In this document: positions 5,379 through 62,181 of the stretch, piece by piece
How positions within the stretch are numbered: the first letter of the stretch is position 1
Layout: every line of letters begins with the position of its first letter
The notes under the pieces: generated by a model
The model's input: only the letters and a program-made list of their open reading frames with translations
The model's database searches: none
Told to the model about the DNA's origin: nothing
Position numbers and translations under genes: made by a program
Assembly (NCBI GenBank): GCA_964622835.1
Contig: CAZUSA010000003.1
Location: 1-62,181 of the forward strand
Reading direction: 5' to 3'
DNA length: 62,181 nt
DNA from: Candidatus Woesearchaeota archaeon
GTDB lineage: Archaea; Nanobdellota; Nanobdellia; SCGC-AAA011-G17; UBA489

Positions 5379-7589
5379 CTAAAGCCTTTTCTTTTTCAAT
5401 AATAGAGAATTGCTAACCACGCTCACACTACTTAAGGCCATCGCAGCTCCAGCAATAATTGGAGAAAGTAACCATCCAGTCAGAGGATACAATACTCCCG
5501 CAGCAATTGGAATGCCTAAAACGTTGTAAAAAAGCCCCCAAAACATGTTTTGCCTTATTTTAGCCATAGTAAATTTACTTAACTTAACTGCCTTTGGAAC
5601 ATCTAAAATATCATTTTTCATTAAAACAACATTTCCTGTCTCCATAGCCACATCAGTTCCTGAACCCATTGCTATACCAATATCTGCTTGAGCCAAAGCT
5701 GGAGCATCATTTATACCGTCTCCAACCATTGCAACTTCACCATATTTCTGTAACTTTTTAACATAATTTGCTTTTTCTTCAGGGAGAACATCAGCAAAGA
5801 TATTTCTTATTCCTGCCTGAGAAGCAATTGCCTTAGCAGTTCTTTCATTATCCCCAGTAATCATAAAAACTTTTATTCCCATTCTATGCAATCTTCTTAC
5901 AGCATTACTTGCATTTTCCTTTATCGTATCAGCAACTGCAATCAGGCCTATTACTTTATTTTTCTCAGCCAAAATCATAACTGTTTTTCCAAGATTTTCC
6001 AATTCTTTTTTCTTTTCAATTATTTCCTTGGTATAGATTTTTTCTTTATTCATCAATTTTTCATTACCAAAAAAATATTTTTTACCATTCAATGCAGCAA
6101 CAACCCCCATCCCAGGTATAGCCATAAAATTTGTAGCTCTTTTGAGTGAAATTTTTTGATTTTCTGCTTCTTTAACAATTGCTTCAGCGAGAGAATGTTC
6201 AGAAGATTGTTCAATACTAGCAGCATATTCTAATAATTCATGTTCTGTTACATTTCTATTTAATGAAATTACATTTGTTACTTGTGGTATTCCTTTAGTG
6301 ATAGTTCCTGTTTTGTCAAATGCAACAACTTTTATTTTGTGTGCTGTTTCTAAAGCTTCTCCTCCTTTAATCAAAATACCTTTTTTAGCACCTTTGCCAG
6401 TTCCAACCATAATTGCGGTGGGTGTAGCTAATCCTAAGGCACAAGGGCAAGCAATAACTAACACTGCCACACTAGTGATCAAGGCAAAAGATATGTCTTT
6501 GTCAAAGAAAAAATACCATGAACTAAATGTCAATATGGCTACAAAAATAACTATTGGGACAAAATAAGATGAAACAGTGTCTGCAAACCTTTGAATTGGT
6601 GCCTTACTTCCTTGAGCTTCTTCAATAAGCTTAATTATCCTTGCAAGAGTGGTGTTTTCACCAATTTCTGTTGTTTTAAAGATTAAACTTCCTTGTTTGT
6701 TAATTGTTGCACCTATAACTTTGTCTCCAACATTTTTATCAACAGGAATGCTTTCACCACTAATCATACTTTCATCAACAGAAGAATGTCCTTCAACAAT
6801 AATGCCATCAACAGGAATTTTTTCTCCAGGTTTAACTATGATGAGGTCTCCTACAACAACATTTTCAATAGGGACTTTTGATTCTTTTCCGTCTTTGAGA
6901 ATGGTTGCAGTTTTTGGTGCTATATTCATAAGTTTTTTAATTGCACTTGAAGTTTTTTGTTTTGCTTTAGATTCCAAAAATTTCCCAAGAATAACTAATG
7001 TGATAATCATTGCTGATGCCTCAAAGTATTGTCCTTGTGATGGATTGAAAAGCATTGTATAAACACTAAAAATATAGGCTGCACTTGTGCCCATAACAAT
7101 CAATGTATCCATATTGGCTGATTTGTTTTTTAATGCACTCCAGGCGCCTTTGTAAAAATCCCACGCCACATATAATTGCACTGGTGTAGCTAAGATAAAT
7201 AGGAAATAATGTGCATAGAGAAGTTCTGTACCCATAAAGAAAATACTCTCTTTCATAAGAAACATTCCAATGATAAAAGCAGGAACAGCAAATAAAAGGC
7301 TGATATTTAGTTTTTTCTTAAGGTTAAATAATTCCAATTTCTGTTGGCGTGCAAGCTGGTCTTTGCCAGAGGAAGTATCATATTTTTGTGCAGTATAGCC
7401 TTTACTTTTCACTACATCTATTAATTTATTGGGCAAGACTACTTTTTCATCAAACACAACATTAGCACGTGCTGTAGAATAATTAACATTAGCTTCTCTC
7501 ACACCATTTATTTTTGTTAATGCCTTTGTGATAATAGTTGCGCAGCTAGCACAATGCATCCCTCCAACAGATATGTCTATTTTTTTCAT
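5379..7589 (-). CDS. copA: Cu(I)-translocating P1B-type ATPase
   Basis: GMHCASC HMA domain, TGES-like SGES, CPC, DKTGT, HSLA, GDGIND, and YN and MALSS motifs. Confidence 0.97.
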
Positions 7590-8005
7590 TATTCAACTAC
7601 AAATGAACCTCTTCCCATATTCATTGAACATCTTATTGGTATTGTTCCTTTTTTAGTTGGTGTAAATTCAATAATGTTATCATTAGCTGTAACATACTTT
7701 TTTACTCCAAATGAAGGAATGTTAACCTCTTGCATACAACCTCTAACTGTACTCATATCTACTTCCATACGCACTGGAACACCTTCTTTTAAGGTACTTG
7801 GAGTTATAATATAACCTTGCCCTCCCATGCTTAAAGTTACTTTTTGTACTTCCCCATTACCTGCAGTAACAGTTTTTACTACTTCTCCTGTTATTCCAGC
7901 ATTGTTTTTTAATCCACTGTTGAACAAAAACACAACTGCAATTATAAGTATCCCTATAAAAACAAGATGCTTTCCTCCCAACCTAATTGTATTATCTTCT
8001 TTCAT
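7589..8005 (-). CDS. Membrane-anchored cupredoxin-domain protein (CupA-like)
   Basis: N-terminal TM, GCMQEV motif, C-terminal CSMNM motif; lies directly upstream of copA. Confidence 0.85.
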
Positions 8006-8006
8006 T

Positions 8007-8933
8007 TTAACCTCCTATCACAAATGATGATTTTGGACCATAAACCGTAATAACACTTAAAACCAAAGTTACAACTATAGAAATTGAAGCAAAAGTAACA
8101 AACTCTACTGGTTTTTTCCTAACACTTTGATTATGTTCTACAACTTCCTCAAACAACATATAAGACAAACCTCCTAAAATTATTAGATTTATCAGCATAT
8201 ACAATGGCATAAACAATTCAAGATGGTCAAAGAACATCATAAGACTAATCATAGGCCCCATTGTCCCTCCCATTAATCCTGCCATCATTCCTTCCATAAT
8301 CCCCATAACTCCACAACAGGTTCCAGTCATAGTACCAACAATGACGCCAATTATCATACCAACAGTTGCACCAATAAAAAATCCATTAGTGGCTCCCATA
8401 ATTGCACCAATCATCATTCCAGATTGCATTCCAACAGTCATACCAATCATCATACCAACCATACAAGTAACTTTGGCGTGGTATGAATAAAAATGCCATA
8501 AAGCTCCTCCAATGAACGTAACACTAATTGTCAAATACAAAAACCAAATTGCATAATTTTGAAAAAAACCTTCTATTTTATTCAAAAAAGCCCAATAAGT
8601 TAAGATTTCTAAAATTCCTAAGAGAAGAAAAACATAAATTGTATATCTAATACCCTTACGTTCAAGGTCATATTTTTTTGGATTTTCTTTAAAATCTCTA
8701 AATCTCTCTCTAATTGTTTTTCTTTCAAAGGGTGTGGGTGCTGCACGAAAACCCCTGTCTTTTATTATTTTAACAAATTCTTTTTCAGTTATTCTAGTAC
8801 TATCATGATCAAAAATAACTTTATCATTCATTACTTCCCAAGAATTGACACCATTTAATGATTTAAAAGACTTATTAAGAATTTTAACACAACTATCGCA
8901 TTCTATGTCTGGAACATAAATTGTTGTTTTCAT
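8007..8933 (-). CDS. HMA domain + Met/Gly-rich polytopic membrane protein
   Basis: DIECDSC HMA motif and TM segments with CMVGMMIGMTVGM and CCGVMGIMEGMMAGLMGGTMGPM. Confidence 0.8.
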   Translation of the reverse strand: MKTTIYVPDIECDSCVKILNKSFKSLNGVNSWEVMNDKVIFDHDSTRITEKEFVKIIKDRGFRAAPTPFERKTIRERFRDFKENPKKYDLERKGIRYTIYVFLLLGILEILTYWAFLNKIEGFFQNYAIWFLYLTISVTFIGGALWHFYSYHAKVTCMVGMMIGMTVGMQSGMMIGAIMGATNGFFIGATVGMIIGVIVGTMTGTCCGVMGIMEGMMAGLMGGTMGPMISLMMFFDHLELFMPLYMLINLIILGGLSYMLFEEVVEHNQSVRKKPVEFVTFASISIVVTLVLSVITVYGPKSSFVIGG

Positions 8934-9995: not shown

Positions 9996-10193
9996 ATGGA
10001 AGAAGAACTTTATGGAAATGTTACGTGTCCAGAATGCAAATATTTACAGAAAATGAAGATACCAACAAATATGTGTATGCAATCTTACAGTTGTGATAGT
10101 TGTAAAAAAGAAATTAAAGCTAAAAACAGTTGTTGTGTATTTTGTGATTATGGGGATAGAAAATGTCCAGTGGCAGAGGAACATCAAAAATGA
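9996..10193 (+). CDS. GDCCVxC-family small Cys-rich protein (mer-associated)
   Basis: CPEC..MKIPTNMC..YSCDSC..NSCCVFCDYGDRKCP pattern. Confidence 0.8.
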   Translation: MEEELYGNVTCPECKYLQKMKIPTNMCMQSYSCDSCKKEIKAKNSCCVFCDYGDRKCPVAEEHQK

Positions 10194-10528
10194 AAAAAGA
10201 AGATAAAACATTATTGTACGCTGGAGGCATTGGCGCATTTATAGCATCGCTTTGCTGTCTTGGACCAGTTATTATAGTTTTATTAGGTCTTGGAAGTATT
10301 TCAACAGCGTTAACAATTGGTACTTACTCTTGGTTGTTTACATCTTTAGCTATAATCTTTTTTGTATTAGCTATCACGTTATATCTCAAAAAAAAGAAAT
10401 GTTGTAATGTTAATGGAATGCAGCGACATTGGAAAATTATCATTGGGGGATTCATCATCTTAGTAATACTTTTGATAGTCCTAAAATATTGGTTCGCTCC
10501 GTTACTAGCGGAGGTTATTTACAAATGA
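10190..10528 (+). CDS. MerT-like metal transport protein
   Basis: ASLCCLGP in TM1, a cytoplasmic CC pair (KKKCC), three TMs. Confidence 0.8.
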   Translation: MKKEDKTLLYAGGIGAFIASLCCLGPVIIVLLGLGSISTALTIGTYSWLFTSLAIIFFVLAITLYLKKKKCCNVNGMQRHWKIIIGGFIILVILLIVLKYWFAPLLAEVIYK

Positions 10529-15822: not shown

Positions 15823-16272
15823 TTATTTAAACAGTCCCGTCTTTAATCCCCAGATTGTATGTACTATTCTTGTAAGAAGTAACGCACCAATGTATGCGAC
15901 AACAACACTTCCTGCTCGTGCCATTCCTTGTGTTAATAGCATTCCTTGAAACGTTACAGCTAACACATAGTATAATGGTGATAAAATAACACGTTGAAAT
16001 TGTATCGTTGCTACATCGGTAACAAAGTGTCGTTGTTTATGACGTTTTGTTGCACGTGTTGTACTGAGTCGATGGAACCAGCTAAAAATACCAACATCAA
16101 GGACAGCATCAATAACTGCAGTAAGAACAACAATATAACTGATAGTATTAGTCCATGATGTTAACATATCAATAAAACGTGCAACAACAAGTGTAGACAA
16201 CAAACCAGCAAAAACAATATTCCCATTAATATGTAATAACCGACTATTGTAATACTGTTGTAATAGTTTCAT
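15823..16272 (-). CDS. Hypothetical 4-TM membrane protein
   Basis: Hydrophobic ORF coupled to the cyclophilin stop codon. Confidence 0.65.
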   Translation of the reverse strand: MKLLQQYYNSRLLHINGNIVFAGLLSTLVVARFIDMLTSWTNTISYIVVLTAVIDAVLDVGIFSWFHRLSTTRATKRHKQRHFVTDVATIQFQRVILSPLYYVLAVTFQGMLLTQGMARAGSVVVAYIGALLLTRIVHTIWGLKTGLFK

Positions 16273-16832
16273 TACAATAACGTTACTTTGGTAACAACAA
16301 TTTCTTCAACAGGGCGATCACTTGCTTCTGTTTGTGTGCTACCGATAGCTTCTAACACGTCTTCACCTGATGTTATTACACCAAAGATTGCATGATGATC
16401 ATCTAAGTGCGGCGTTGGCACTAAGGTAATAAAGAATTGACTGCCACCAGTATTGGGTCCTGAATTGGCCATGGATAATAATCCTTTTTTATCGTGACGT
16501 AACTCTTGAACGAATTCATCATCAATAGCATGACCAGGTCCACCGGTACCCCACATTGCTTGATTAGCAACATCTTTTGTTAGTGGATCGCCACCTTGTA
16601 TCATAAATCCTGCGATAACTCTGTGGAATCGCGTACCATCATAAAAGCCGTCAGTAATAAGTTTCTTAAAATTTTCAGTTGTTGTTGGAACTAATTCATC
16701 AAAGAGTTCAAATTCCATGACTCCTGCAGTTGTTTCCATTCGTACGTGTGTGCGTTCCATTGGTGTTTCTCCTGGTGATGTACATCCTGTTATAAGAACA
16801 AGAAAAGTAATGAGCATCACCGCATATTTCAT
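16272..16832 (-). CDS. ppiB: Cyclophilin-type peptidyl-prolyl isomerase (lipoprotein)
   Basis: FHRVIAGFMIQGGDP, LSMANSGPNTGGSQFFIT, HAIFG; N-terminal LITGC lipobox. Confidence 0.95.
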   Translation of the reverse strand: MKYAVMLITFLVLITGCTSPGETPMERTHVRMETTAGVMEFELFDELVPTTTENFKKLITDGFYDGTRFHRVIAGFMIQGGDPLTKDVANQAMWGTGGPGHAIDDEFVQELRHDKKGLLSMANSGPNTGGSQFFITLVPTPHLDDHHAIFGVITSGEDVLEAIGSTQTEASDRPVEEIVVTKVTLL

Positions 16833-16865: not shown

Positions 16866-17246
16866 TTATTCTTTTCGTAGTCGTTGTAAGGCTATTTCTG
16901 CGGATTCTGCAACATCGGTATCATCATCGGTAAGAAATTGCTCAATAAAAGGAATAAATGCAACATCGCCTAAGGTTCCTAATGCCATTAATGCTTCATG
17001 TCGTACGTAAGGACTTTCATCGGTTTCAATGGCTTTCATAAGTAAAGGACCTGCTTCTTTTGCTGCAGCTGTTTCTCCTAAGGCAAAGGCACATTCGTGA
17101 CGAACAATGGGGGAAGGATCGGTAAACAGAGCTTTTCCTAAAGTTCTTATAGCACGATCATCACCAATGTTTTCTAGTTGGAAGGCTGCTTGTATGCGAT
17201 CGTCTTTACTCACGCTTTGATCTAAGATAATTTGTGTGTAATCCAT
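16866..17246 (-). CDS. HEAT-repeat protein resembling one lobe of deoxyhypusine hydroxylase
   Basis: Two HE motifs (VRHECAFALG, VRHEALMALG) with His residues 33 aa apart; ends VAESAEIALQRL. Confidence 0.75.
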   Translation of the reverse strand: MDYTQIILDQSVSKDDRIQAAFQLENIGDDRAIRTLGKALFTDPSPIVRHECAFALGETAAAKEAGPLLMKAIETDESPYVRHEALMALGTLGDVAFIPFIEQFLTDDDTDVAESAEIALQRLRKE

Positions 17247-17340
17247 CTGCAAAGCAACAAAAGTCAATTTAAAATAGTTGGTATTGTTACATAAACCTTA
17301 TAAGTTACTAAAGGTCATAAGAATCAAGAAAGAGGGATGA

Positions 17341-18012
17341 ATGAAACAACAAACACGTTCTCACATATTATTTTATACAGTACTCATTACTATTTTCCTC
17401 GTTGCTATTAGTGGGTTTGTAACTTCTGATGGTGATGATTTTGGTCATGATGCAAGTTCTATTATGGTTGATGTTCCTAATGATGATGGGACATTTGAAA
17501 CGATGTATTTGGATGATGCAATAGCAGATCACCGTATTGGCTATGATGTGCCTGTAACAGATACAAAACTTCCTGATAAGTGGTATATGGTTGGTGACAA
17601 ATCTGAATCATCAAATTATTTATGTACAACAGTAACAGATATTGAAGAGTACTGTGCTGATGAAGACGGGTGTATTATTAGAGCGTTAATGCAACACGAA
17701 AAGAAAAGCCAAAATGATCAAGTACGTGTGCATGATTGGGAAATATTTATAGAACAAGAAGATATGTCTAACGAAAATGTTGATGATATTTATGCGTGGG
17801 CACATTACCCTGGTGCTGATAGGGCATATAGGATGGGGAAAGATAAGAAAACATTTTTGACGTTTTGGTCCTGGGCGTATGCATATAATTATATGCCAAG
17901 TCAGTGTATTGACGGTAATAAGGATGGGCCTATTTACATAGATGGAAATAAATATGATTTAACATTTAGATCACACCCTTATGTGTACACGCGAATAGTG
18001 TTAATTGATTAA
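17341..18012 (+). CDS. Secreted/surface protein, tandem paralog A
   Basis: Signal-anchor, GHDASSI motif, CADEDGCII. Confidence 0.75.
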   Translation: MKQQTRSHILFYTVLITIFLVAISGFVTSDGDDFGHDASSIMVDVPNDDGTFETMYLDDAIADHRIGYDVPVTDTKLPDKWYMVGDKSESSNYLCTTVTDIEEYCADEDGCIIRALMQHEKKSQNDQVRVHDWEIFIEQEDMSNENVDDIYAWAHYPGADRAYRMGKDKKTFLTFWSWAYAYNYMPSQCIDGNKDGPIYIDGNKYDLTFRSHPYVYTRIVLID

Positions 18013-18014
18013 CG

Positions 18015-18692
18015 ATGATCCAAGAAAAGAAACAATTCTCTCGTAAGATATATTATACGTTATTAGTAACATTGATGATGATTAGTGTGAGTGTCCTCGT
18101 ATCATCAGGTGCAGTAAAATCTGGTCATGATGCAAGTAATATTAGGGTTGATATTCCTAATAATGATGGGACTATTGAAGCAATGTCGTTATCGGATGCA
18201 GTAAAAAATCACCGCATTCGTCCTGCAGTGCCGGCAACTCCTTCTGATGTAAAACTTGATGATAAAGTTTTAACATTGGGTTCATCAAGTAATCAAGATT
18301 GGATCTGTGTAACAGAAAGTATTGAAGATCACTGTGCTGATGAAGATGGGTGCATTATTCGGGGTATGCTTCAACATGAAACGTCAAGCGTCGATGAAGT
18401 ACGTACTCTCAGTTGGCAAGTTTTTATGGAACAAGATGACATGTCTAATAATAATTTTGATGATACTTATTTGTGGGCACAGTATCCCGGTGATTCGAGG
18501 GCTTCAAGGTTAGGTAATGGTGGAGAATACACTGTTTTGAGATTTTGGAATTGGATGTATGCCTATAATTACAACCACAAATATTGCAAGGGTCAAGGCA
18601 GTACTGGTCCTGCGTTTGATGGTGATAACTTGTATGATCTCACGTTTATGGTGCACCCTGATGTGCAAGGACGTATTGTGATTGAGGATTAA
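18015..18692 (+). CDS. Secreted/surface protein, tandem paralog B
   Basis: Full-length similarity to paralog A (GHDASNI, CADEDGCII, YAYNY..C). Confidence 0.75.
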   Translation: MIQEKKQFSRKIYYTLLVTLMMISVSVLVSSGAVKSGHDASNIRVDIPNNDGTIEAMSLSDAVKNHRIRPAVPATPSDVKLDDKVLTLGSSSNQDWICVTESIEDHCADEDGCIIRGMLQHETSSVDEVRTLSWQVFMEQDDMSNNNFDDTYLWAQYPGDSRASRLGNGGEYTVLRFWNWMYAYNYNHKYCKGQGSTGPAFDGDNLYDLTFMVHPDVQGRIVIED

Positions 18693-29452: not shown

Positions 29453-30166
29453 ATGGTAAAGAATAGAGGAAAAAAAGTAAAGATTGAGTTTGATGAGCTC
29501 ACCTTGTGGAAAGCAGGGACGATCATCTTTGGTATCTTATTTCTTTTATGCATCCTTAAGGGAAGCGATGGCGGAAATGCTATACCGGTTCAACCACCGA
29601 CGGTGGGAGCACCTTCAGGAGCGCCTCCAACGGCAGCACCTGTTGATGTAGATGTTGGCGATGCATACGTCAAAGGTAAAAAAAATGCTAAAGTAGAAAT
29701 CATTGAGTTTTCTGATTTAGAATGTCCGTTCTGTGGAAGATTCTATCGTGACACATATGGTCAAATTGTAGAAAATTACATTGATACAGGTAAGGCAAAG
29801 TTAGCATTCAAGCATTTACCATTACCGTTCCATAACAATGCACAAAAAGCTGCAGAAGCATTGGAATGTGCAGGTGAAGTTGGTGGCGATGATGCGTTCT
29901 GGGATATGCATGATGTAATCTTTGAGAATCAGCAAGCAATTACTGTGCCTGATTTGAAAGGATATGCTGGACAAGTTGGTGTTGATCAAAGTAAGTTCGA
30001 CAGTTGTTTAGACAATGGTGACACTGCTGGTAAAATTGCAGGACATCTTGCTGAAGCAAAAAAACTTGGTGCAAGTGGTACGCCTACATTCTTTGTGAAT
30101 GGTGTTAAACTTGTTGGTGCACAACCATACAGTGCATTCGAAGCTGCTATTAATGCGGCTTTGTAA
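29453..30166 (+). CDS. dsbA: DsbA-family thiol-disulfide oxidoreductase, membrane-anchored
   Basis: EFSDLECPFC and GTPTFFVNG motifs; N-terminal TM; GGAG SD. Confidence 0.92.
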   Translation: MVKNRGKKVKIEFDELTLWKAGTIIFGILFLLCILKGSDGGNAIPVQPPTVGAPSGAPPTAAPVDVDVGDAYVKGKKNAKVEIIEFSDLECPFCGRFYRDTYGQIVENYIDTGKAKLAFKHLPLPFHNNAQKAAEALECAGEVGGDDAFWDMHDVIFENQQAITVPDLKGYAGQVGVDQSKFDSCLDNGDTAGKIAGHLAEAKKLGASGTPTFFVNGVKLVGAQPYSAFEAAINAAL

Positions 30167-39672: not shown

Positions 39673-41283
39673 TGAAGGCAAGTATTGTGGAATCGAAGTA
39701 GAGCAAATATAACCTGTTAAAATAGAATATTAAGAAAGAAAGTTAGTAAGATCGTACAATTCCCGTTGATCCTGCGGGAGGTCGCTGCTTTCGGGATTCG
39801 ACTTAGACATGCAAGTCAAGATCCCTTCGGGGGTCGGCGAAAGGCTCAGTAACACGTCGATAATCTGCCCTATGGTCTGGAATAACTTCGGGAAACTGAA
39901 GGTAATACCGGATAGAAGATGAATACTGGAAGGTTTCTTCTTTGAAAGATTACGCCATAGGATGAGTCGGCGGCTGATTAGGCTGTTGGTGAGGTAACGG
40001 CTCACCAAACCAACGATCAGTAGGGGGTATGAGAGTACTGTCCTCGAGAAGGGCACTGAGACAAGGGCCCTAGCCCTAAGGGGTGCAGCAGTCACGAGAA
40101 CTTTACAATGCACGAAAGTGTGATAGGGGAATCCCGAGTGCTTACGTTAAGTAGGCTTTTGTTAAGTGTAAGGAGCTTAACGAATAAGTGGTGGGTAATA
40201 CTGGTGCCAGCCGCCGCGGTAACACCAGAGCCACTAGTGGGGACCATTTTTATTGGGTCTAAAGCGTCCGTAGCCGGTTTGACAAGTCTTTCGTGAAATT
40301 GTTTCGCTTAACGGAGCAACGTGCGAGAGAAACTGTTAGACTTGGGACCGGGAGACGATAAGAGTATGCCTTGGGGAGCGGTAAAATGTTTTAATCCTTG
40401 GTAGACTTCCGATAGCGAAGGCACTTATCGAGAACGGGTCCGACGGTCAGGGACGAAGGCTGGGGGAGCAAAACGGATTAGATACCCGTGTAGTCTCAGC
40501 AGTAAACGCTGCCTATTATGTGTTGCGTATCCCACGAGGGTATGCAGTGCCGTAGAGAAGTCGTTAAATAGGCCACCTGGGTAGTACGATCGCAAGATTG
40601 AAACTTTAAGGAATTGGCGGGGGAGCACTACAATCGGTGACGCGTGCGGTTTAATTTAACTCCACACAGAAAATCTCACCATGGGCGACGGCAGGATGAA
40701 GGTCAGATTAAAGGTCTTACCTGACGAGCCGAGAGATGTTGCATGGCCGCCGTCAGCTCGTGCCGCAAGGTGTCCGGTTAAGTCCGGCAACGAGCAAGAC
40801 CTGTACCATTAGTTGCTAGCGAGTCCTTCGGGATGATCGTGCACACTAGTGGGACTGCCTTGGTAACGAGGAGGAAGGTGCAGGCAACGGTAGGTCTGTA
40901 TGACTCGAATCTCATGGGCTACACGCGCGCGGCAATGGTTTGGACAATGGGATGCAACACCGAAAGGTGAAGCTAATCCTCGAAACCAAATCTCAGTCCA
41001 GATTGAGGGTTGTAACTCACCCTCATGACGCTGGAATCGATAGTAATCGTTTATCATTAGTGAACGGTGAATACGTCCCTGTTCCTTGCACACACTGCCC
41101 GTCAAATCAACCGAGCAGGGTCTGAGTGAGGATTGCATTCCGGTGCGATTCGAACTTAGATTCAGTGAGGTGGGTTAAGTCGTCACAAGGTATCCGTAGG
41201 GGAACCTGCGGATGGATCACCTCCTATTTTATTATTATGAACATGGTTTATGTTCTACTTCACCATTGAAATGCTTGCCTTCA
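39673..41283 (+). other. Pre-16S processing stem with a bulge-helix-bulge-like motif
   Basis: 39673-39720 pairs with 41231-41283 (TGAAGGCAAGTATT/AATGCTTGCCTTCA; GAAGTAG/CTACTTC). The central GTGG/CCAT helix has a TGA bulge on one side. Confidence 0.75.
39759..41225 (+). rRNA. rrs: 16S rRNA (archaeal)
   Basis: ATTCCCGTTGATCCTG start, GTGCCAGCCGCCGCGGTAA, GGAATTGGCGGGGGAGCAC, GGATCACCTCCT end; about 1,467 nt. Confidence 0.98.
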
Positions 41284-41907: not shown

Positions 41908-41934
41908 AAACAGCAGGTGTGCTCAAAAATGAAT

Positions 41935-42008
41935 GGGCCTGTAGTTCAGCCTGGTAGAACGCCTGCTTTGCAAGCAGGAGGCCGTGGGTTCGAATCCCGC
42001 CGGGTCCA
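41935..42008 (+). tRNA. tRNA-Ala(TGC)
   Basis: Full cloverleaf; anticodon arm CCTGC-TT-TGC-AA-GCAGG; GGTTCGAATCC T arm; CCA not encoded. Confidence 0.97.
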
Positions 42009-42080
42009 TACAACATTCTTATTAAAGAAATATTTCTTCTAACAATAAAGTTATATAACCTCTACTAATTATGTCTCATC

Positions 42081-42792: not shown

Positions 42793-43581
42793 TTATAGTG
42801 TTATTTTCTTTTTTGTAACAGTGAGTAATCCTTCTGTTGCCATTTCTTTAACTAATCCAATAATCCATTCTTCATCTTTTTCAAACTGTTCACACAAATC
42901 ACTAATCAATACTTCCTTTTCTTGAACGAGTTGTTTCATTATTTGTCCACGATACCATCGTCGTGATCCTTTGAATATTGATTGTGTTGATTTTGGTTTG
43001 ATCCCTGTTTTTTTACTTGTTAATACTGTTGATCCATAGTCCATTAAGGCATTATGCCAGTCACATGATTTATTGTTGGGTATGACTGATTGTGCTACGT
43101 CTTGTAATTGTTTATCACTAATGGTTTCTTCTAACTGTAATTCATGGATTAAGATTCTTCTAATATTGGTATCAACACACGCACAGGGCATATTAAAAGC
43201 AAAACTTAAGATGGCATTGGCAGTATATGGGCCTACCCCTGGTAACGATAAGAGGAGTTCATGGTCTTTTGGCAGTTTACCGTTATATTTCTCAGTTACA
43301 GTTTTTGCAAGTTCATGTAATCGTACTGCCCGACTATTAAATCCAAGGCCGGACCACAGTGCTAAAACATCCCCGCGCGAAGCTGTTGCTAATTGTTGTA
43401 TCGTCGGAAACTGTTTCAAGAATGCTTCATACTTTGGAATGACTCGATCAACTTGTGTTTGTTGTAACATCGTTTCAGAAACTAATATCTTATACGCATC
43501 TGTTGTTTTTCTCCAAGGAAGATCACGTTTATTTTCTTGATACCATATTAATATTTTCTCTTGAAACGACGGAATGTCCAT
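42793..43581 (-). CDS. mutY: A/G-specific adenine glycosylase (short form without Fe-S cluster)
   Basis: RDLPWR, VSETMLQQTQV, LPGVGPYTA and VDTNIRR motifs; the four cluster Cys are absent. Confidence 0.88.
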   Translation of the reverse strand: MDIPSFQEKILIWYQENKRDLPWRKTTDAYKILVSETMLQQTQVDRVIPKYEAFLKQFPTIQQLATASRGDVLALWSGLGFNSRAVRLHELAKTVTEKYNGKLPKDHELLLSLPGVGPYTANAILSFAFNMPCACVDTNIRRILIHELQLEETISDKQLQDVAQSVIPNNKSCDWHNALMDYGSTVLTSKKTGIKPKSTQSIFKGSRRWYRGQIMKQLVQEKEVLISDLCEQFEKDEEWIIGLVKEMATEGLLTVTKKKITL

Positions 43582-44234: not shown

Positions 44235-47256
<3,022 letters not shown>

Positions 47257-56120: not shown

Positions 56121-56471
56121 TTGATGAAAAAGAGGGTACAGAGTCATAGACTTAATAGATTAGTATTTGTTTTTGTTGCTTTATTTCTTGCTGCTGGTTA
56201 TGTTATAACAAATGGTATGTCTGCTGATGTTACTGGTTATGTGTCGTCTGATGAGCCTTGTGAGTTAGTTTCCAATCGTTTTTCTCATGTTTCCTATTGT
56301 CAAGGGAAGATGTTAGATGAAGGCGAACAATGTGCGTGGATTGCTAGTACTGGAAGTTGTCAGTACGTGCATGAAAAGCAGATGTGTGCTGGTACGCATA
56401 GAGGTTTTTGTGCTAAGCCTACGGATGTGTGTAGATATATTGGCCAATCACACACGTGTATTCGTGGTTAA
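56121..56471 (+). CDS. Small secreted Cys-rich protein
   Basis: N-terminal TM followed by a domain with 8 Cys. Confidence 0.6.
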   Translation: MMKKRVQSHRLNRLVFVFVALFLAAGYVITNGMSADVTGYVSSDEPCELVSNRFSHVSYCQGKMLDEGEQCAWIASTGSCQYVHEKQMCAGTHRGFCAKPTDVCRYIGQSHTCIRG

Positions 56472-57526
56472 GGTTTAAGTAACGCTTTATCTAGTTGTGC
56501 TCGTGTTATTTTTGATAGTTTCTTTTGAAAGGTTCCACAAAAATCAACAAGGACGTTGTAGAAGTTTTTTTTCATTTCTCCGCTGAGCAGTGTACCTTTT
56601 TTGTAATCTCTAATAAGTGCTTTACTATCGTTATCATCTAAGAATAAATTCGTAAGATAGAAACATGCCATGTCTTTATTGGGGTCACCACCTTTTTTTC
56701 TGTGTTCTTCTACGGTTTTTCGTCCACCACTTAATGCTTTGTTAACTTTTTTCTTTAATATCTCTGCAGTATCTCGAAAGTAAATGCCGTTATTACGTGA
56801 TTTTGACATTTTTTTACCGTCTAATCCGGGTAAGAATCGTAGGTGTAACACACTTGGTTTAACATATCCTGCTCTACCAGCAATATCTCGTGCGATGCGT
56901 AAGTGTGCATCTTCATCGGGTCCAATAGGTACTAAGACGTGTTTGATACCATGTAATGCTTGGGGAAATAATACATGAGCTGCTTGGACTGCTGGATAAA
57001 AGTATAATCCTGGATTATCATCTTTCTTATAGCCATAGGTAGAAATAATTTCTGACATGGTGATGCGTCGTGATAGCTTAATAGCTAAGTTGTAAATAGG
57101 AGTATATATTTGGTCTATGATAATAAATGTTTTTTTAGGATCAAAGCCGTAAGCAATAAGTTCTTTTGCAAGTTCTATTGAATATTTTAGTGCTTCTTCT
57201 TGGCTTTCTACTTTTCCTGAGACATAACTTTCATCGTCTGATATAGGGATAAAAACTGGTATACCAAATTCTTTTTGAAAAAATAAATTCGTATCAAAGA
57301 CAACTTTGTGTCCTATATGTAATGTTCCTGATGCGTTAACGCCTGAGACGATAGCACATTTTTCTCCTCGTTTCAATGCTGCATAGAATGTATCAAAGTC
57401 TCTGTGGGAATAAATGAGTCCTTTTTGAAAGGTGTAACAGTCCGGTAGCTGTTTCAATGTGCTCATTCGTTTAGCACCAAACTTCGTTACAAGTTTTTCA
57501 TTATCCACTAACAATGCTTTGTCCAT
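56468..57526 (-). CDS. trpS: Tryptophanyl-tRNA synthetase (archaeal type)
   Basis: LHIGH, PIGPDED and KMSKS motifs. Confidence 0.95.
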   Translation of the reverse strand: MDKALLVDNEKLVTKFGAKRMSTLKQLPDCYTFQKGLIYSHRDFDTFYAALKRGEKCAIVSGVNASGTLHIGHKVVFDTNLFFQKEFGIPVFIPISDDESYVSGKVESQEEALKYSIELAKELIAYGFDPKKTFIIIDQIYTPIYNLAIKLSRRITMSEIISTYGYKKDDNPGLYFYPAVQAAHVLFPQALHGIKHVLVPIGPDEDAHLRIARDIAGRAGYVKPSVLHLRFLPGLDGKKMSKSRNNGIYFRDTAEILKKKVNKALSGGRKTVEEHRKKGGDPNKDMACFYLTNLFLDDNDSKALIRDYKKGTLLSGEMKKNFYNVLVDFCGTFQKKLSKITRAQLDKALLKP

Positions 57527-58434: not shown

Positions 58435-59058
58435 ATGACACAACAAAAAGTAGTTCTGTTGGGGAGAGTTTCAAAGTCAGGGACGTTAAGAGACCTTACG
58501 GAAGGACATGAGGGTGATCTTACTAAAGGACCACTGAATCATAGACTCCCATATCAAAGAGTTATGGATAATCAAGAGACATTTACTCCATGGACTGCTC
58601 AGGATCAACTCATTATTGATGCAAGAACATATGAACAATTACAAAAAAATGATAGCGATTTTTTAGTAGACAAAGATTGTGTGGTGGTCATTGGAAGATT
58701 GCAAAGTGCTTGGAAAACTGTAAGGGAATTTGGTAAGAGAACTTCAGGGGGTGTGCGTCATGCAGGAACAATGGCAAGGGCACTTACTCAGGCAGTAAGA
58801 AATGATGGATCTTCTGTTTACGTCTGGGGTTCAACAGACTTATTAAAAAGAAGACGGACAAGAAATGATTTATTAAAGAGAACAGATTTGTGTGCTCTTG
58901 TCGTTGAACATGAAAGTAAAAGTAATGGGCCAATTCATTTGCCCATAAGAGGAAATCAAAGTTGTTGGACTGAAGTGCTTAAAAGGAATTATGGTGCTGA
59001 AGGTTGCTCTGTAATGGTTTACAATAGAATTAGTCCGTCGGATACGCCATCTTCGTAG
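58435..59058 (+). CDS. Highly diverged dihydrofolate-reductase-fold protein
   Basis: Colinear DHFR-like segments: [45 protein letters not shown]. Confidence 0.5.
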
Positions 59059-60064
59059 TAAACTGTATATTTTTGTCTGTATCAAAGGCTTTGCGTATGG
59101 GTGTTGTTAAGATGTTTATTTCTCGTGCGACTGCTTGTTTCAAGTCTGCAGGATGTATTGCTTTATCTTTGTAGGATCCTTCTAATGCTTCGTAGTGTGC
59201 AAAGCTTAGGTCACCACCAAATTTTTTATCTCGTGTAATAACAAAGGATTTATCATTTAAGATAGGAAAGATAACATTTCGTACAAACGCTAAGATACCA
59301 TTACCTTCGACGATACCTTCTGGACAGAATGCTTTGTTCATTTTTTTTGTAATGAATGCTTCACTGTCTAAGATGTCTATTTTTGATGCACTGTCTGATG
59401 CACTCATTTTATCTCCCGTTAATCCAGGAATCATGGGGTTCATTAAATGTATTCTTTTTTTGTAATCTATTTTTGGGAGGTATTCTCTGTCGTACATGAA
59501 GATTTTTCGTTGGTCAACGCCACCAAATTGTGCATCGACATCTAAGTATTGTTCGTCAAGTGCTTGCAACGTTGGATATAACAAGGAACTCATTTTTGGA
59601 TTGTCTGATTGTTTTACTACTTCTGCTCCTGCTTTTTTTGCATCTTTGTATGATGTTACTGATGCCAGTCTATACATGTCTAATGTGTATTCTTCACCAA
59701 GTTGAAAGTCTGTTCCTTTGACGAATTTTAATTTCTTTAAGGGTACACCTATAGAGGTTAACATTTGTTTGATGATGAATTGATAGTATTCTGTTCTATG
59801 TTCAAGTTGATCCCATAAACTTTTTTGATTGTCTAAGTAGCCGTGTAAGTCTGCAAATAAGATAGTAACGCTACAGCCTGCTTTCAAAAAATCAGCTATT
59901 TTAATCATAGGAACAAAGTAAGCAATATGTGGTCGTCCACTAATGGCTGTTCCCCAATAGATTTTAAGATCTCTTTTCTTAAGAATTTCTTTAAGTTCTT
60001 CTTCACCTACGACTTCTTGTAAGTTTCTCGTAATAAGCTCACATTTTTCCTCGGGTTTCATCAT
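59030..60064 (-). CDS. tyrS: Tyrosyl-tRNA synthetase (archaeal type)
   Basis: [27 protein letters not shown] and KMSAS motifs. Confidence 0.96.
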
Positions 60065-61856: not shown

Positions 61857-62181
61857 TAGGAGTGGCAGTTACCTTCCGGTTGAAAAACTGGGGAAAGTCC
61901 GCCCACCACTATAGGCCACTGTTTGAAAGAACAGATTCCGAAAGGGATGGCAACCGTCCAGAAATAACACGGCCGGTGCAGGTTAAGCAAGGAGACGGTC
62001 AGGCTGCAAATGCCTGAGAGAGCACAATACTCTTTGACGTTGTTCGTGAGAATGACAAGATAACCCGTCGAGCGTCTGCACAGGATGCGATGAAACAACG
62101 AGCCCTGGTTGGTGCAAGTCGATGATCGACGCTAAGTTAAATGGTAACATCGTCTCCTCTTTACCCTGCGTAAAGAAGACG
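61857..62181 (+). ncRNA. rnpB: RNase P RNA (archaeal), truncated at the window end
   Basis: GGGAAAGTCC (CR-I), CAGAAA, TGAAAC and GCAAG elements in order; the 3' CR-V element is not in the window. Confidence 0.85.

Follow-up and report, generated by a model that had tools for sequence, protein, structure and literature searches.

The closest described system is eukaryotic deoxyhypusine hydroxylase (DOHH / Lia1 / Mmd1; EC 1.14.99.29; PDB 4d4z, 4d50), a protein of about 300 aa, in which two linker-joined lobes with four His-Glu (HE) motifs hold a di-iron site within one chain. Mutagenesis and crystallography have defined both the di-iron and the deoxyhypusine-binding positions of the human enzyme: H56/H89/E90 and H207/H240/E241 serve as iron ligands (PMC9117371, PMC3306375), and E57/E208 together with G63/G214 bind the deoxyhypusine side chain (PMC9117371). 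According to papers published in 2012-2021, archaea possess deoxyhypusine synthase (DHS) and have no DOHH ortholog (PMC5178350, PMC6105217, PMC8153317, PMC3306375), so that the literature leaves unresolved how hypusine is made in these organisms. Here we analyse a stretch of 62,181 nucleotides (contig CAZUSA010000003.1 of a Candidatus Woesearchaeota archaeon, assembly GCA_964622835.1), below called the window, which encodes on its minus strand a HEAT-repeat protein of 126 aa similar to one lobe of DOHH. An earlier model-made interpretation of the same letters, further referred to as the sequence-only reading, had suggested that this single lobe could homodimerise into a di-iron oxygenase and had stated that no archaeal DOHH is recognised, with which the cited literature agrees. 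The half-size family to which the protein belongs is a concrete candidate for the enzyme in DPANN archaea, Heimdallarchaeota and Marsarchaeota.

Relation of the 126-aa protein to one lobe of DOHH

The gene and the codons of its putative active-site residues are located as follows:
16866..17246, minus strand: gene of the single-lobe DOHH-like HEAT protein, 126 aa (open reading frame and translation; stop codon 16866-16868)
17094..17099, minus strand: codons of His50-Glu51, first HE motif (CAC GAA)
17076..17078, minus strand: codon of Gly57 (His50+7)
16995..17000, minus strand: codons of His83-Glu84, second HE motif (CAT GAA)

Translation of this open reading frame (ORF) gives a protein of 126 aa, MDYTQIILDQSVSKDDRIQAAFQLENIG...VAESAEIALQRLRKE, where HE occurs only twice, at residues 50-51 and 83-84, the distance between the two histidines being 33 residues. 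This is exactly how the protein had been described in the sequence-only reading, and both peptides quoted there as framing it are found in the translation. The human lobe-1 sequence given there for comparison, PLQARFRALFTL...VAETCQLAVRRL, agrees with PDB 4d4z beyond its first six residues, LVDPKQ, which lie outside the alignment.

Pfam assigns the protein to generic families only: HEAT_2 (E 3.9e-26), HEAT_PBS (E 1.4e-15; PF03130, 56.4 bits with a cut-off of 20.9) and HEAT. HEAT_PBS is a repeat class common to DOHH as well and therefore is no indicator of function. In sequence searches of PDB human DOHH (4d4z) was the top natural protein, both with the single sequence (E 1.9e-28) and with a profile built from 48 homologs (E 8.6e-29, 103 bits). 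Designed alphaRep consensus proteins outscored it, and their lead is only a sum over many repeats. With the same profile other natural proteins received much lower scores, namely 25 bits for phycocyanobilin lyase CpcE, 23 for MTH187 (1te4) and 22 for YibA. Curated NCBIfam models of this group scored far below their cut-offs, which was registered for NblB (32.6 bits versus 300), CpcE (19.1 versus 330) and CpcF (18 versus 220). Aligned with human DOHH, the archaeal protein matches lobe 1 in 39/112 residues and lobe 2 in 40/124, i.e. 32-35% identity per lobe, and the two human lobes are identical to each other in 47/112 positions. In these alignments H50, H83 and E84 coincide with the iron ligands H56/H89/E90 and H207/H240/E241, and E51 and G57 with substrate-binding E57/E208 and G63/G214. 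The N-lobe glycine is numbered G65 in PMC9117371; in the 4d4z sequence it sits at His+7.

Comparison of folds gave the same result. The AlphaFold2 model calculated on the family alignment (mean predicted local distance difference test, pLDDT, 97.4; predicted template modelling score, pTM, 0.90) consists of eight helices (3-8, 14-27, 30-42, 46-57, 62-75, 79-91, 95-102 and 110-125) forming four helical hairpins. Its top Foldseek match in PDB is a lobe of human DOHH (4d4z_A), with a template modelling (TM) score of 0.92 and a root-mean-square deviation (rmsd) of 1.2 Å over 124 columns at 34% identity; for alphaReps the values were about 0.83 and 1.8 Å. In general, PBS-lyase-type HEAT proteins (CpcE/CpcF, NblB, YibA, MTH187) and the alphaReps derived from them share with the 126-aa protein the repeat type and a similar curvature (TM about 0.7-0.84), but they are devoid of HE at the positions of the concave face, and to our knowledge no metal centre has been described for them. 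The likeness to a single lobe of DOHH, claimed in the sequence-only reading, was thus borne out in the comparison with PBS-lyase HEAT families proposed there (103 bits and TM 0.92 for DOHH, which is the best natural match in PDB by both sequence and fold, versus 22-25 bits), and the protein is almost certainly a homolog of one DOHH lobe and not a generic PBS-lyase HEAT protein.

At the same time it is not a canonical DOHH, since the ORF bounded by stop codons contains one lobe of 126 aa with two HE motifs instead of eight HEAT repeats and four HE motifs per polypeptide. At most it can be considered as a single-lobe variant. The lobe fold, the HE..HE spacing of 33 residues, the iron ligands H, H and E, the substrate-binding Glu and the Gly at His+7 are common to both proteins, whereas the di-iron site, which in the eukaryotic enzyme lies within one chain, would in the archaeal protein require two chains. 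A few residues specific for the family differ, such as Q19, which is R in eukaryotic DOHH, and E58, which is Q.

Conservation, distribution and lobe architecture of the family

A homolog search among 5.8 billion clustered proteins yielded 227 matches, nearly all of them 124-145 aa long. Within the best 120 of these homologs H50 and E84 were preserved in 119, and E51, G57 and H83 in all 120, residues R17, F22, S45, E114 and S115 being as conserved as those of the HE motifs. H50, E51, G57, H83 and E84 were also invariant in 90 of the 90 half-size proteins and separate lobes taken from DPANN, Heimdall archaea and eukaryotes. A loss of the HE motifs in homologs, which according to the sequence-only reading would speak against a DOHH-like function, was therefore not observed. 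In 102 large generic HEAT proteins matching the same profile, only 5 of 983 repeats (0.5%) have HE at the two corresponding places of the HEAT helix, while 358 of 366 repeats in the short DOHH-like matches do. Based on this disproportion, the HE pair is, at the level of sequence, a signature of the family and neither a chance coincidence nor an effect of repeat composition.

When 1.84 billion representatives were searched exhaustively with the profile, 169 proteins were returned at E ≤ 1e-30, and in the best 150 of them every protein shorter than 420 aa has one or two HE..HE pairs with a spacing of 32-35 residues. Three kinds of proteins can be distinguished in these short matches: half-size proteins of 125-147 aa; eukaryotic DOHH of 283-350 aa with HE spacings of 33 / ~120 / 33, those with names belonging to Galdieria, Trichuris and Geosiphon; and compact two-lobe proteins of 244-292 aa with HE spacings of 32 / ~100 / 32, the named ones being assigned to Heimdallarchaeota, Kariarchaeaceae or the 'Asgard group'.

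The pattern-based scan of one genome per GTDB species detected 51 loci, one in each of the 51 matched genomes. Half-size genes were found in Woese-, Pace- and Nanoarchaeota. In Heimdallarchaeota some metagenome-assembled genomes (MAGs) carry half-size genes and others two-lobe genes, both architectures being present within this one class. Single-lobe Heimdall genes (loci L035, L037, L038, L040, L041 and L042, in most of them at about 10001-10375) encode stop-bounded proteins of 118-147 aa with an HE spacing of 32. Compact two-lobe proteins of Heimdallarchaeota/Kariarchaeaceae (P0122, P0123, P0126, P0339 and relatives; 244-265 aa; Heimdall loci L043, L047 and L061) belong to the same family, having all four HE motifs and about 39-41% identity per lobe; their lobes are, however, fused, the HE spacing is 32, the linker is shorter and the phylum is different. 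Two-lobe genes of another type, coding for 279 aa, were registered in MAGs of Nanoarchaeota and Woesearchaeota and in one labelled Methanosarcinales (L049, 9530-10369; L053, 6080-6919; L051, 9533-10372); this last label may reflect erroneous binning. Single-lobe genes for 149-171 aa (L050, 9929-10378; L052, 8948-9397) occur in Marsarchaeota and a Thermoprotei MAG, and this variant has the conserved C-terminus ...RKTGG; the form found in Aenigmatarchaeota comprises 168 aa.

The mutual arrangement of fused lobes was estimated from the template-free AlphaFold2 model of the Heimdall protein P0122 (pLDDT 97.4, pTM 0.93). It fits whole human DOHH with TM 0.86/0.77 and rmsd 3.0 Å over 277 columns, while for all other HEAT proteins of PDB, which are continuous solenoids, TM did not exceed 0.44. 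Because of this difference the archaeal lobes are predicted to pack face to face in the manner of DOHH rather than as a continuous solenoid.

The history of the lobes was approached by neighbour joining, with 90 half-size proteins and separate lobes aligned over 126 columns and 100 bootstrap replicates. In the resulting tree both eukaryotic lobes, N and C, fall into one clade (bootstrap 86%), the two lobes of DPANN-type two-lobe proteins also stand together (63%), and half-size proteins of Heimdall archaea adjoin Heimdall C lobes. Mean identities are consistent with this topology: eukaryotic N and C lobes are 38% identical to each other and 24-32% identical to any archaeal group, and Heimdall N and C lobes show 42% and 47% identity, respectively, to Heimdall half-size proteins versus 35% to each other. 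Since eukaryotic lobes cluster together and Heimdall lobes are closer to Heimdall half-size proteins than to one another, these data suggest no fewer than two events of duplication with fusion, which eukaryotes and Heimdall archaea underwent independently. The grouping of both lobes of the 279-aa proteins suggests one more independent fusion in the DPANN type. Such repeated events would fit a homodimeric single-lobe form or ancestor. The direction may have been fusion or fission, and the 'ancestral' half-DOHH mentioned in the sequence-only reading is only one possible polarity, because two-lobe forms exist also in Heimdallarchaeota and in some DPANN.

Proposed mechanism and its alternatives

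Assuming the same use of the conserved residues as in each lobe of DOHH, one can outline the following mechanism. Each chain of 126 aa would represent one HEAT lobe of four hairpins with the active residues exposed on its concave face, where H50, H83 and E84 would form a 2-His-1-Glu iron site and E51 and G57 would contact the substrate. Two chains would pair concave face to concave face, like N and C lobes within DOHH, and this pairing would build between them a symmetric non-haem di-iron centre of 4 His and 2 Glu. The centre would then activate O2 and hydroxylate deoxyhypusine on aIF5A. That the single-lobe protein is a dimeric di-iron protein seems probable to us. For the complete scheme, i.e. 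a homodimeric di-iron hydroxylase of deoxyhypusine-aIF5A, our preference is slight. As a tentative and somewhat doubtful extension, the single-lobe proteins may represent a living type of homodimeric DOHH ancestor and, together with their fused Heimdall relatives, the first archaeal deoxyhypusine hydroxylases.

The genes for the substrate pathway were found in organisms carrying the gene. DHS (PF01916, E 2e-100) is encoded on L007, the contig that carries the closest homolog, and also on L018, and aIF5A with the KxGKHG loop, in the form SK(T/P)GKHG(H/S), on L009, L020 and L027. Judging by these genes on homolog-bearing contigs, the pathway exists in the related organisms. The co-occurrence with DHS does not discriminate between the readings, since DHS has been reported from all archaeal genomes (PMC5178350).

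Several observations weigh against the hydroxylase of deoxyhypusine-aIF5A. DHS or aIF5A genes lie within 10 kb in 5 of about 45 DPANN loci, with roughly two expected by chance, so that this proximity is at best marginally above the random level and is not operonic. No conserved operon link with these genes was observed across the related loci, whose neighbourhoods vary by lineage, and motif searches together with a partial Pfam scan found neither DHS nor aIF5A in the 62-kb window. The hydroxylase reaction depends on O2, and many DPANN are considered anaerobic. For the host of the window exposure to oxygen may be assumed from the encoded Bcp peroxiredoxin and DsbA-like thioredoxin, which we count in favour of the hydroxylase. 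Hypusine has been measured in Sulfolobus, Thermoproteus, Pyrodictium and Acidianus (PMC5178350), and a search started from the Thermoprotei/Marsarchaeota member gave 27 relatives, none of which is named Sulfolobales, Thermoproteales or Desulfurococcales. In crenarchaea with measured hypusine another enzyme must act, and since the half-size family was not found in these archaea, it is not a general archaeal solution. As to the structural and evolutionary arguments, AlphaFold2 may have met 4d4z in training, and in a neighbour-joining tree based on 126 columns lobes that co-evolve inside one protein could give a false picture of independent fusions.

One alternative is that the protein has no catalytic function and works as a HEAT scaffold or adaptor (PBS-lyase / MTH187 / YibA type), in which HE would have only a structural or binding role. 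It would account for the generic Pfam assignments and for the NCBI name of family members, which is merely 'HEAT repeat domain-containing protein', and small HEAT proteins such as MTH187 (1te4) do occur in archaea. This explanation has to face, however, the rarity of HE in generic HEAT repeats as opposed to its near-universal presence in the half-size family, scores of natural non-DOHH HEAT proteins that are 4-5 times lower, values far under the cut-offs for the curated lyase and NblB models, and the coincidence of the invariant residues with the experimentally defined active site of DOHH, so we hold it for very improbable. A monomer with a mononuclear H50/H83/E84 site, serving in catalysis or in the sensing or storage of metal, or a lobe pairing with some unrelated partner can be imagined more easily, as a single lobe alone supplies the 2-His-1-Glu set, and 2-His-1-carboxylate is the classical motif of mononuclear non-haem iron proteins. 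But two-lobe fusions appear to have arisen repeatedly in the family, a face-to-face arrangement like that of DOHH is predicted for the fused archaeal form, and the only characterised relatives use such triads in pairs, for a di-iron site (PMC9117371, PMC3306375), which makes this possibility quite unlikely as well.

A homodimeric di-iron oxygenase of the DOHH type might also act on some other substrate, such as a polyamine- or lysine-derived side chain or a small molecule. The lack of an operon link to DHS or aIF5A and the identity of merely about 30-35% to eukaryotic lobes are compatible with this assumption. Half-size and two-lobe forms reside in different Heimdall genomes, so the family may have several functions, and archaeal hypusine pathways are known to vary, as exemplified by the agmatine route in Haloferax (PMC6105217). 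Yet the invariance extends beyond the metal ligands to the deoxyhypusine-binding positions E51 and G57, the eukaryotic enzyme has one known substrate (PMC9117371) and aIF5A of family-carrying organisms has the eukaryote-like loop SK(T/P)GKHG(H/S). Another substrate thus appears unlikely to us, and deoxyhypusine-aIF5A remains the preferred one.

If the proposed hydroxylase is real, the di-iron architecture between two HEAT lobes would have evolved from a homodimer via repeated gene fusion, and an O2-dependent step in the maturation of a translation factor would be placed in the Asgard group, which is discussed as closest to eukaryotes. If, moreover, the single-lobe proteins do represent the ancestral type, eukaryotes would have obtained their two-lobe DOHH from such a half-size gene through a duplication and fusion of their own, and hypusination in its complete, O2-dependent form would have been present in archaea, including this Asgard group, before or during eukaryogenesis. 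The Heimdall two-lobe proteins bear on the timing of full hypusination and of O2-dependent enzymes relative to eukaryogenesis. The 126-aa subunit would also be a scaffold of minimal size on which the exceptionally stable peroxo-diiron intermediate could be studied or engineered. In the literature searched we found no description of archaeal DOHH or of Heimdall two-lobe DOHH-like proteins: the search for DOHH and DPANN gave no paper, the search for hypusination and Asgard/Heimdall nothing relevant, and the word 'hypusine' is absent from the supplements of the large Asgard gene-content study by Eme et al. 2023. In the automatic IMG annotation a minority of members is labelled 'deoxyhypusine monooxygenase'. 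Apparently, the similarity to DOHH has been caught by annotation pipelines and not discussed in the literature.

Surroundings of the gene and other features of the window

In the immediate vicinity of the gene the following features were mapped:
17267..17276, minus strand: TATA-box-like TATTTTAAAT, 21-30 nt upstream of the ATG, read from the sequence
16272..16832, minus strand: cyclophilin-type peptidyl-prolyl isomerase (Pfam Pro_isomerase, E 8.1e-51), 33 nt past the stop of the HEAT gene
17341-18012 and 18015-18692, plus strand: two tandem paralogs of 223 and 225 aa, divergent from the HEAT gene

Stop codons and the promoter-like element flank the HEAT ORF on either side. The ATG at 17246 was taken as its start, because the starts of homologs coincide there and the TATA-like element is situated 21-30 nt upstream; the TTG at 17267, which would extend the ORF to 133 aa, is unlikely to be real. 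In view of the usual layout of archaeal promoters, TATTTTAAAT suggests a promoter of a separate and nearly leaderless transcript of the HEAT gene. The downstream cyclophilin gene, whose product has a hydrophobic N-terminus resembling that of a lipoprotein or a signal peptide, may be co-transcribed with it. The divergent paralogs, for which no Pfam match was obtained, each have a hydrophobic stretch at the N-terminus and Cys motifs that are conserved (CADEDGCIIR). The gene of Bcp peroxiredoxin is 1.7 kb away from the HEAT gene, DsbA-like thioredoxin is encoded at 29453-30166, and no second copy of the HEAT gene was found in the 62-kb window.

Neighbourhoods of the family were compared by all-against-all BLAST clustering of the ORFs from 50 loci. 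The most recurrent neighbour resembled SufC and was dropped, its cluster being a mixture of generic ABC ATPases. Other recurring neighbours were Bcp peroxiredoxin (9 of 50 loci), TYW1 (6), NFACT-R (5) and a cluster of ribosomal-protein genes (3-4 independent loci); this recurrence is mostly among closely related genomes and was set aside as functional evidence. In five DPANN loci (L010, L011, L015, L019 and L024) the NFACT-R gene, of the RqcH/NEMF-like type acting in ribosome quality control, comes directly after the half-size gene, at a distance of 64-450 nt and on the same strand. The ribosomal-protein cluster L18e-L13-S9 is located near the gene in L005/L023, in L014 and in Heimdall locus L061, the latter also having eIF-1A. 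The NFACT-R and ribosomal-protein neighbours hint at a translation-related context of the gene and are too sparse to serve as evidence.

The window, with a G+C content of 37%, contains genes of archaeal type for 16S rRNA, 23S rRNA and RNase P RNA. Since these genes are archaeal and the nearest relatives of the protein come from MAGs of Woesearchaeota, Pacearchaeota and Nanoarchaeota, all of which are DPANN, the host is a DPANN archaeon. The genes of 16S (39759-41225) and 23S (44309-47214) rRNA are separated by a spacer of about 3 kb, which contains tRNA-Ala (41934-42009), two ORFs without a Pfam match and, on the opposite strand, a HhH-GPD DNA glycosylase gene (42793-43581). Because of this spacer with its own genes the two rRNAs probably do not constitute one simple operon. 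The gene of RNase P RNA (61858-62181, plus strand) is incomplete at the end of the window. Two genes of class-I aminoacyl-tRNA synthetases of the Trp/Tyr type are located close to each other on the minus strand (56468-57526 and 59030-60064), with a thymidylate kinase gene and an ORF without a Pfam match between them. In the region 5379-8933, also on the minus strand, a P-type heavy-metal ATPase with an HMA domain (736 aa) is encoded near a protein of 308 aa, which likewise starts with an HMA domain.

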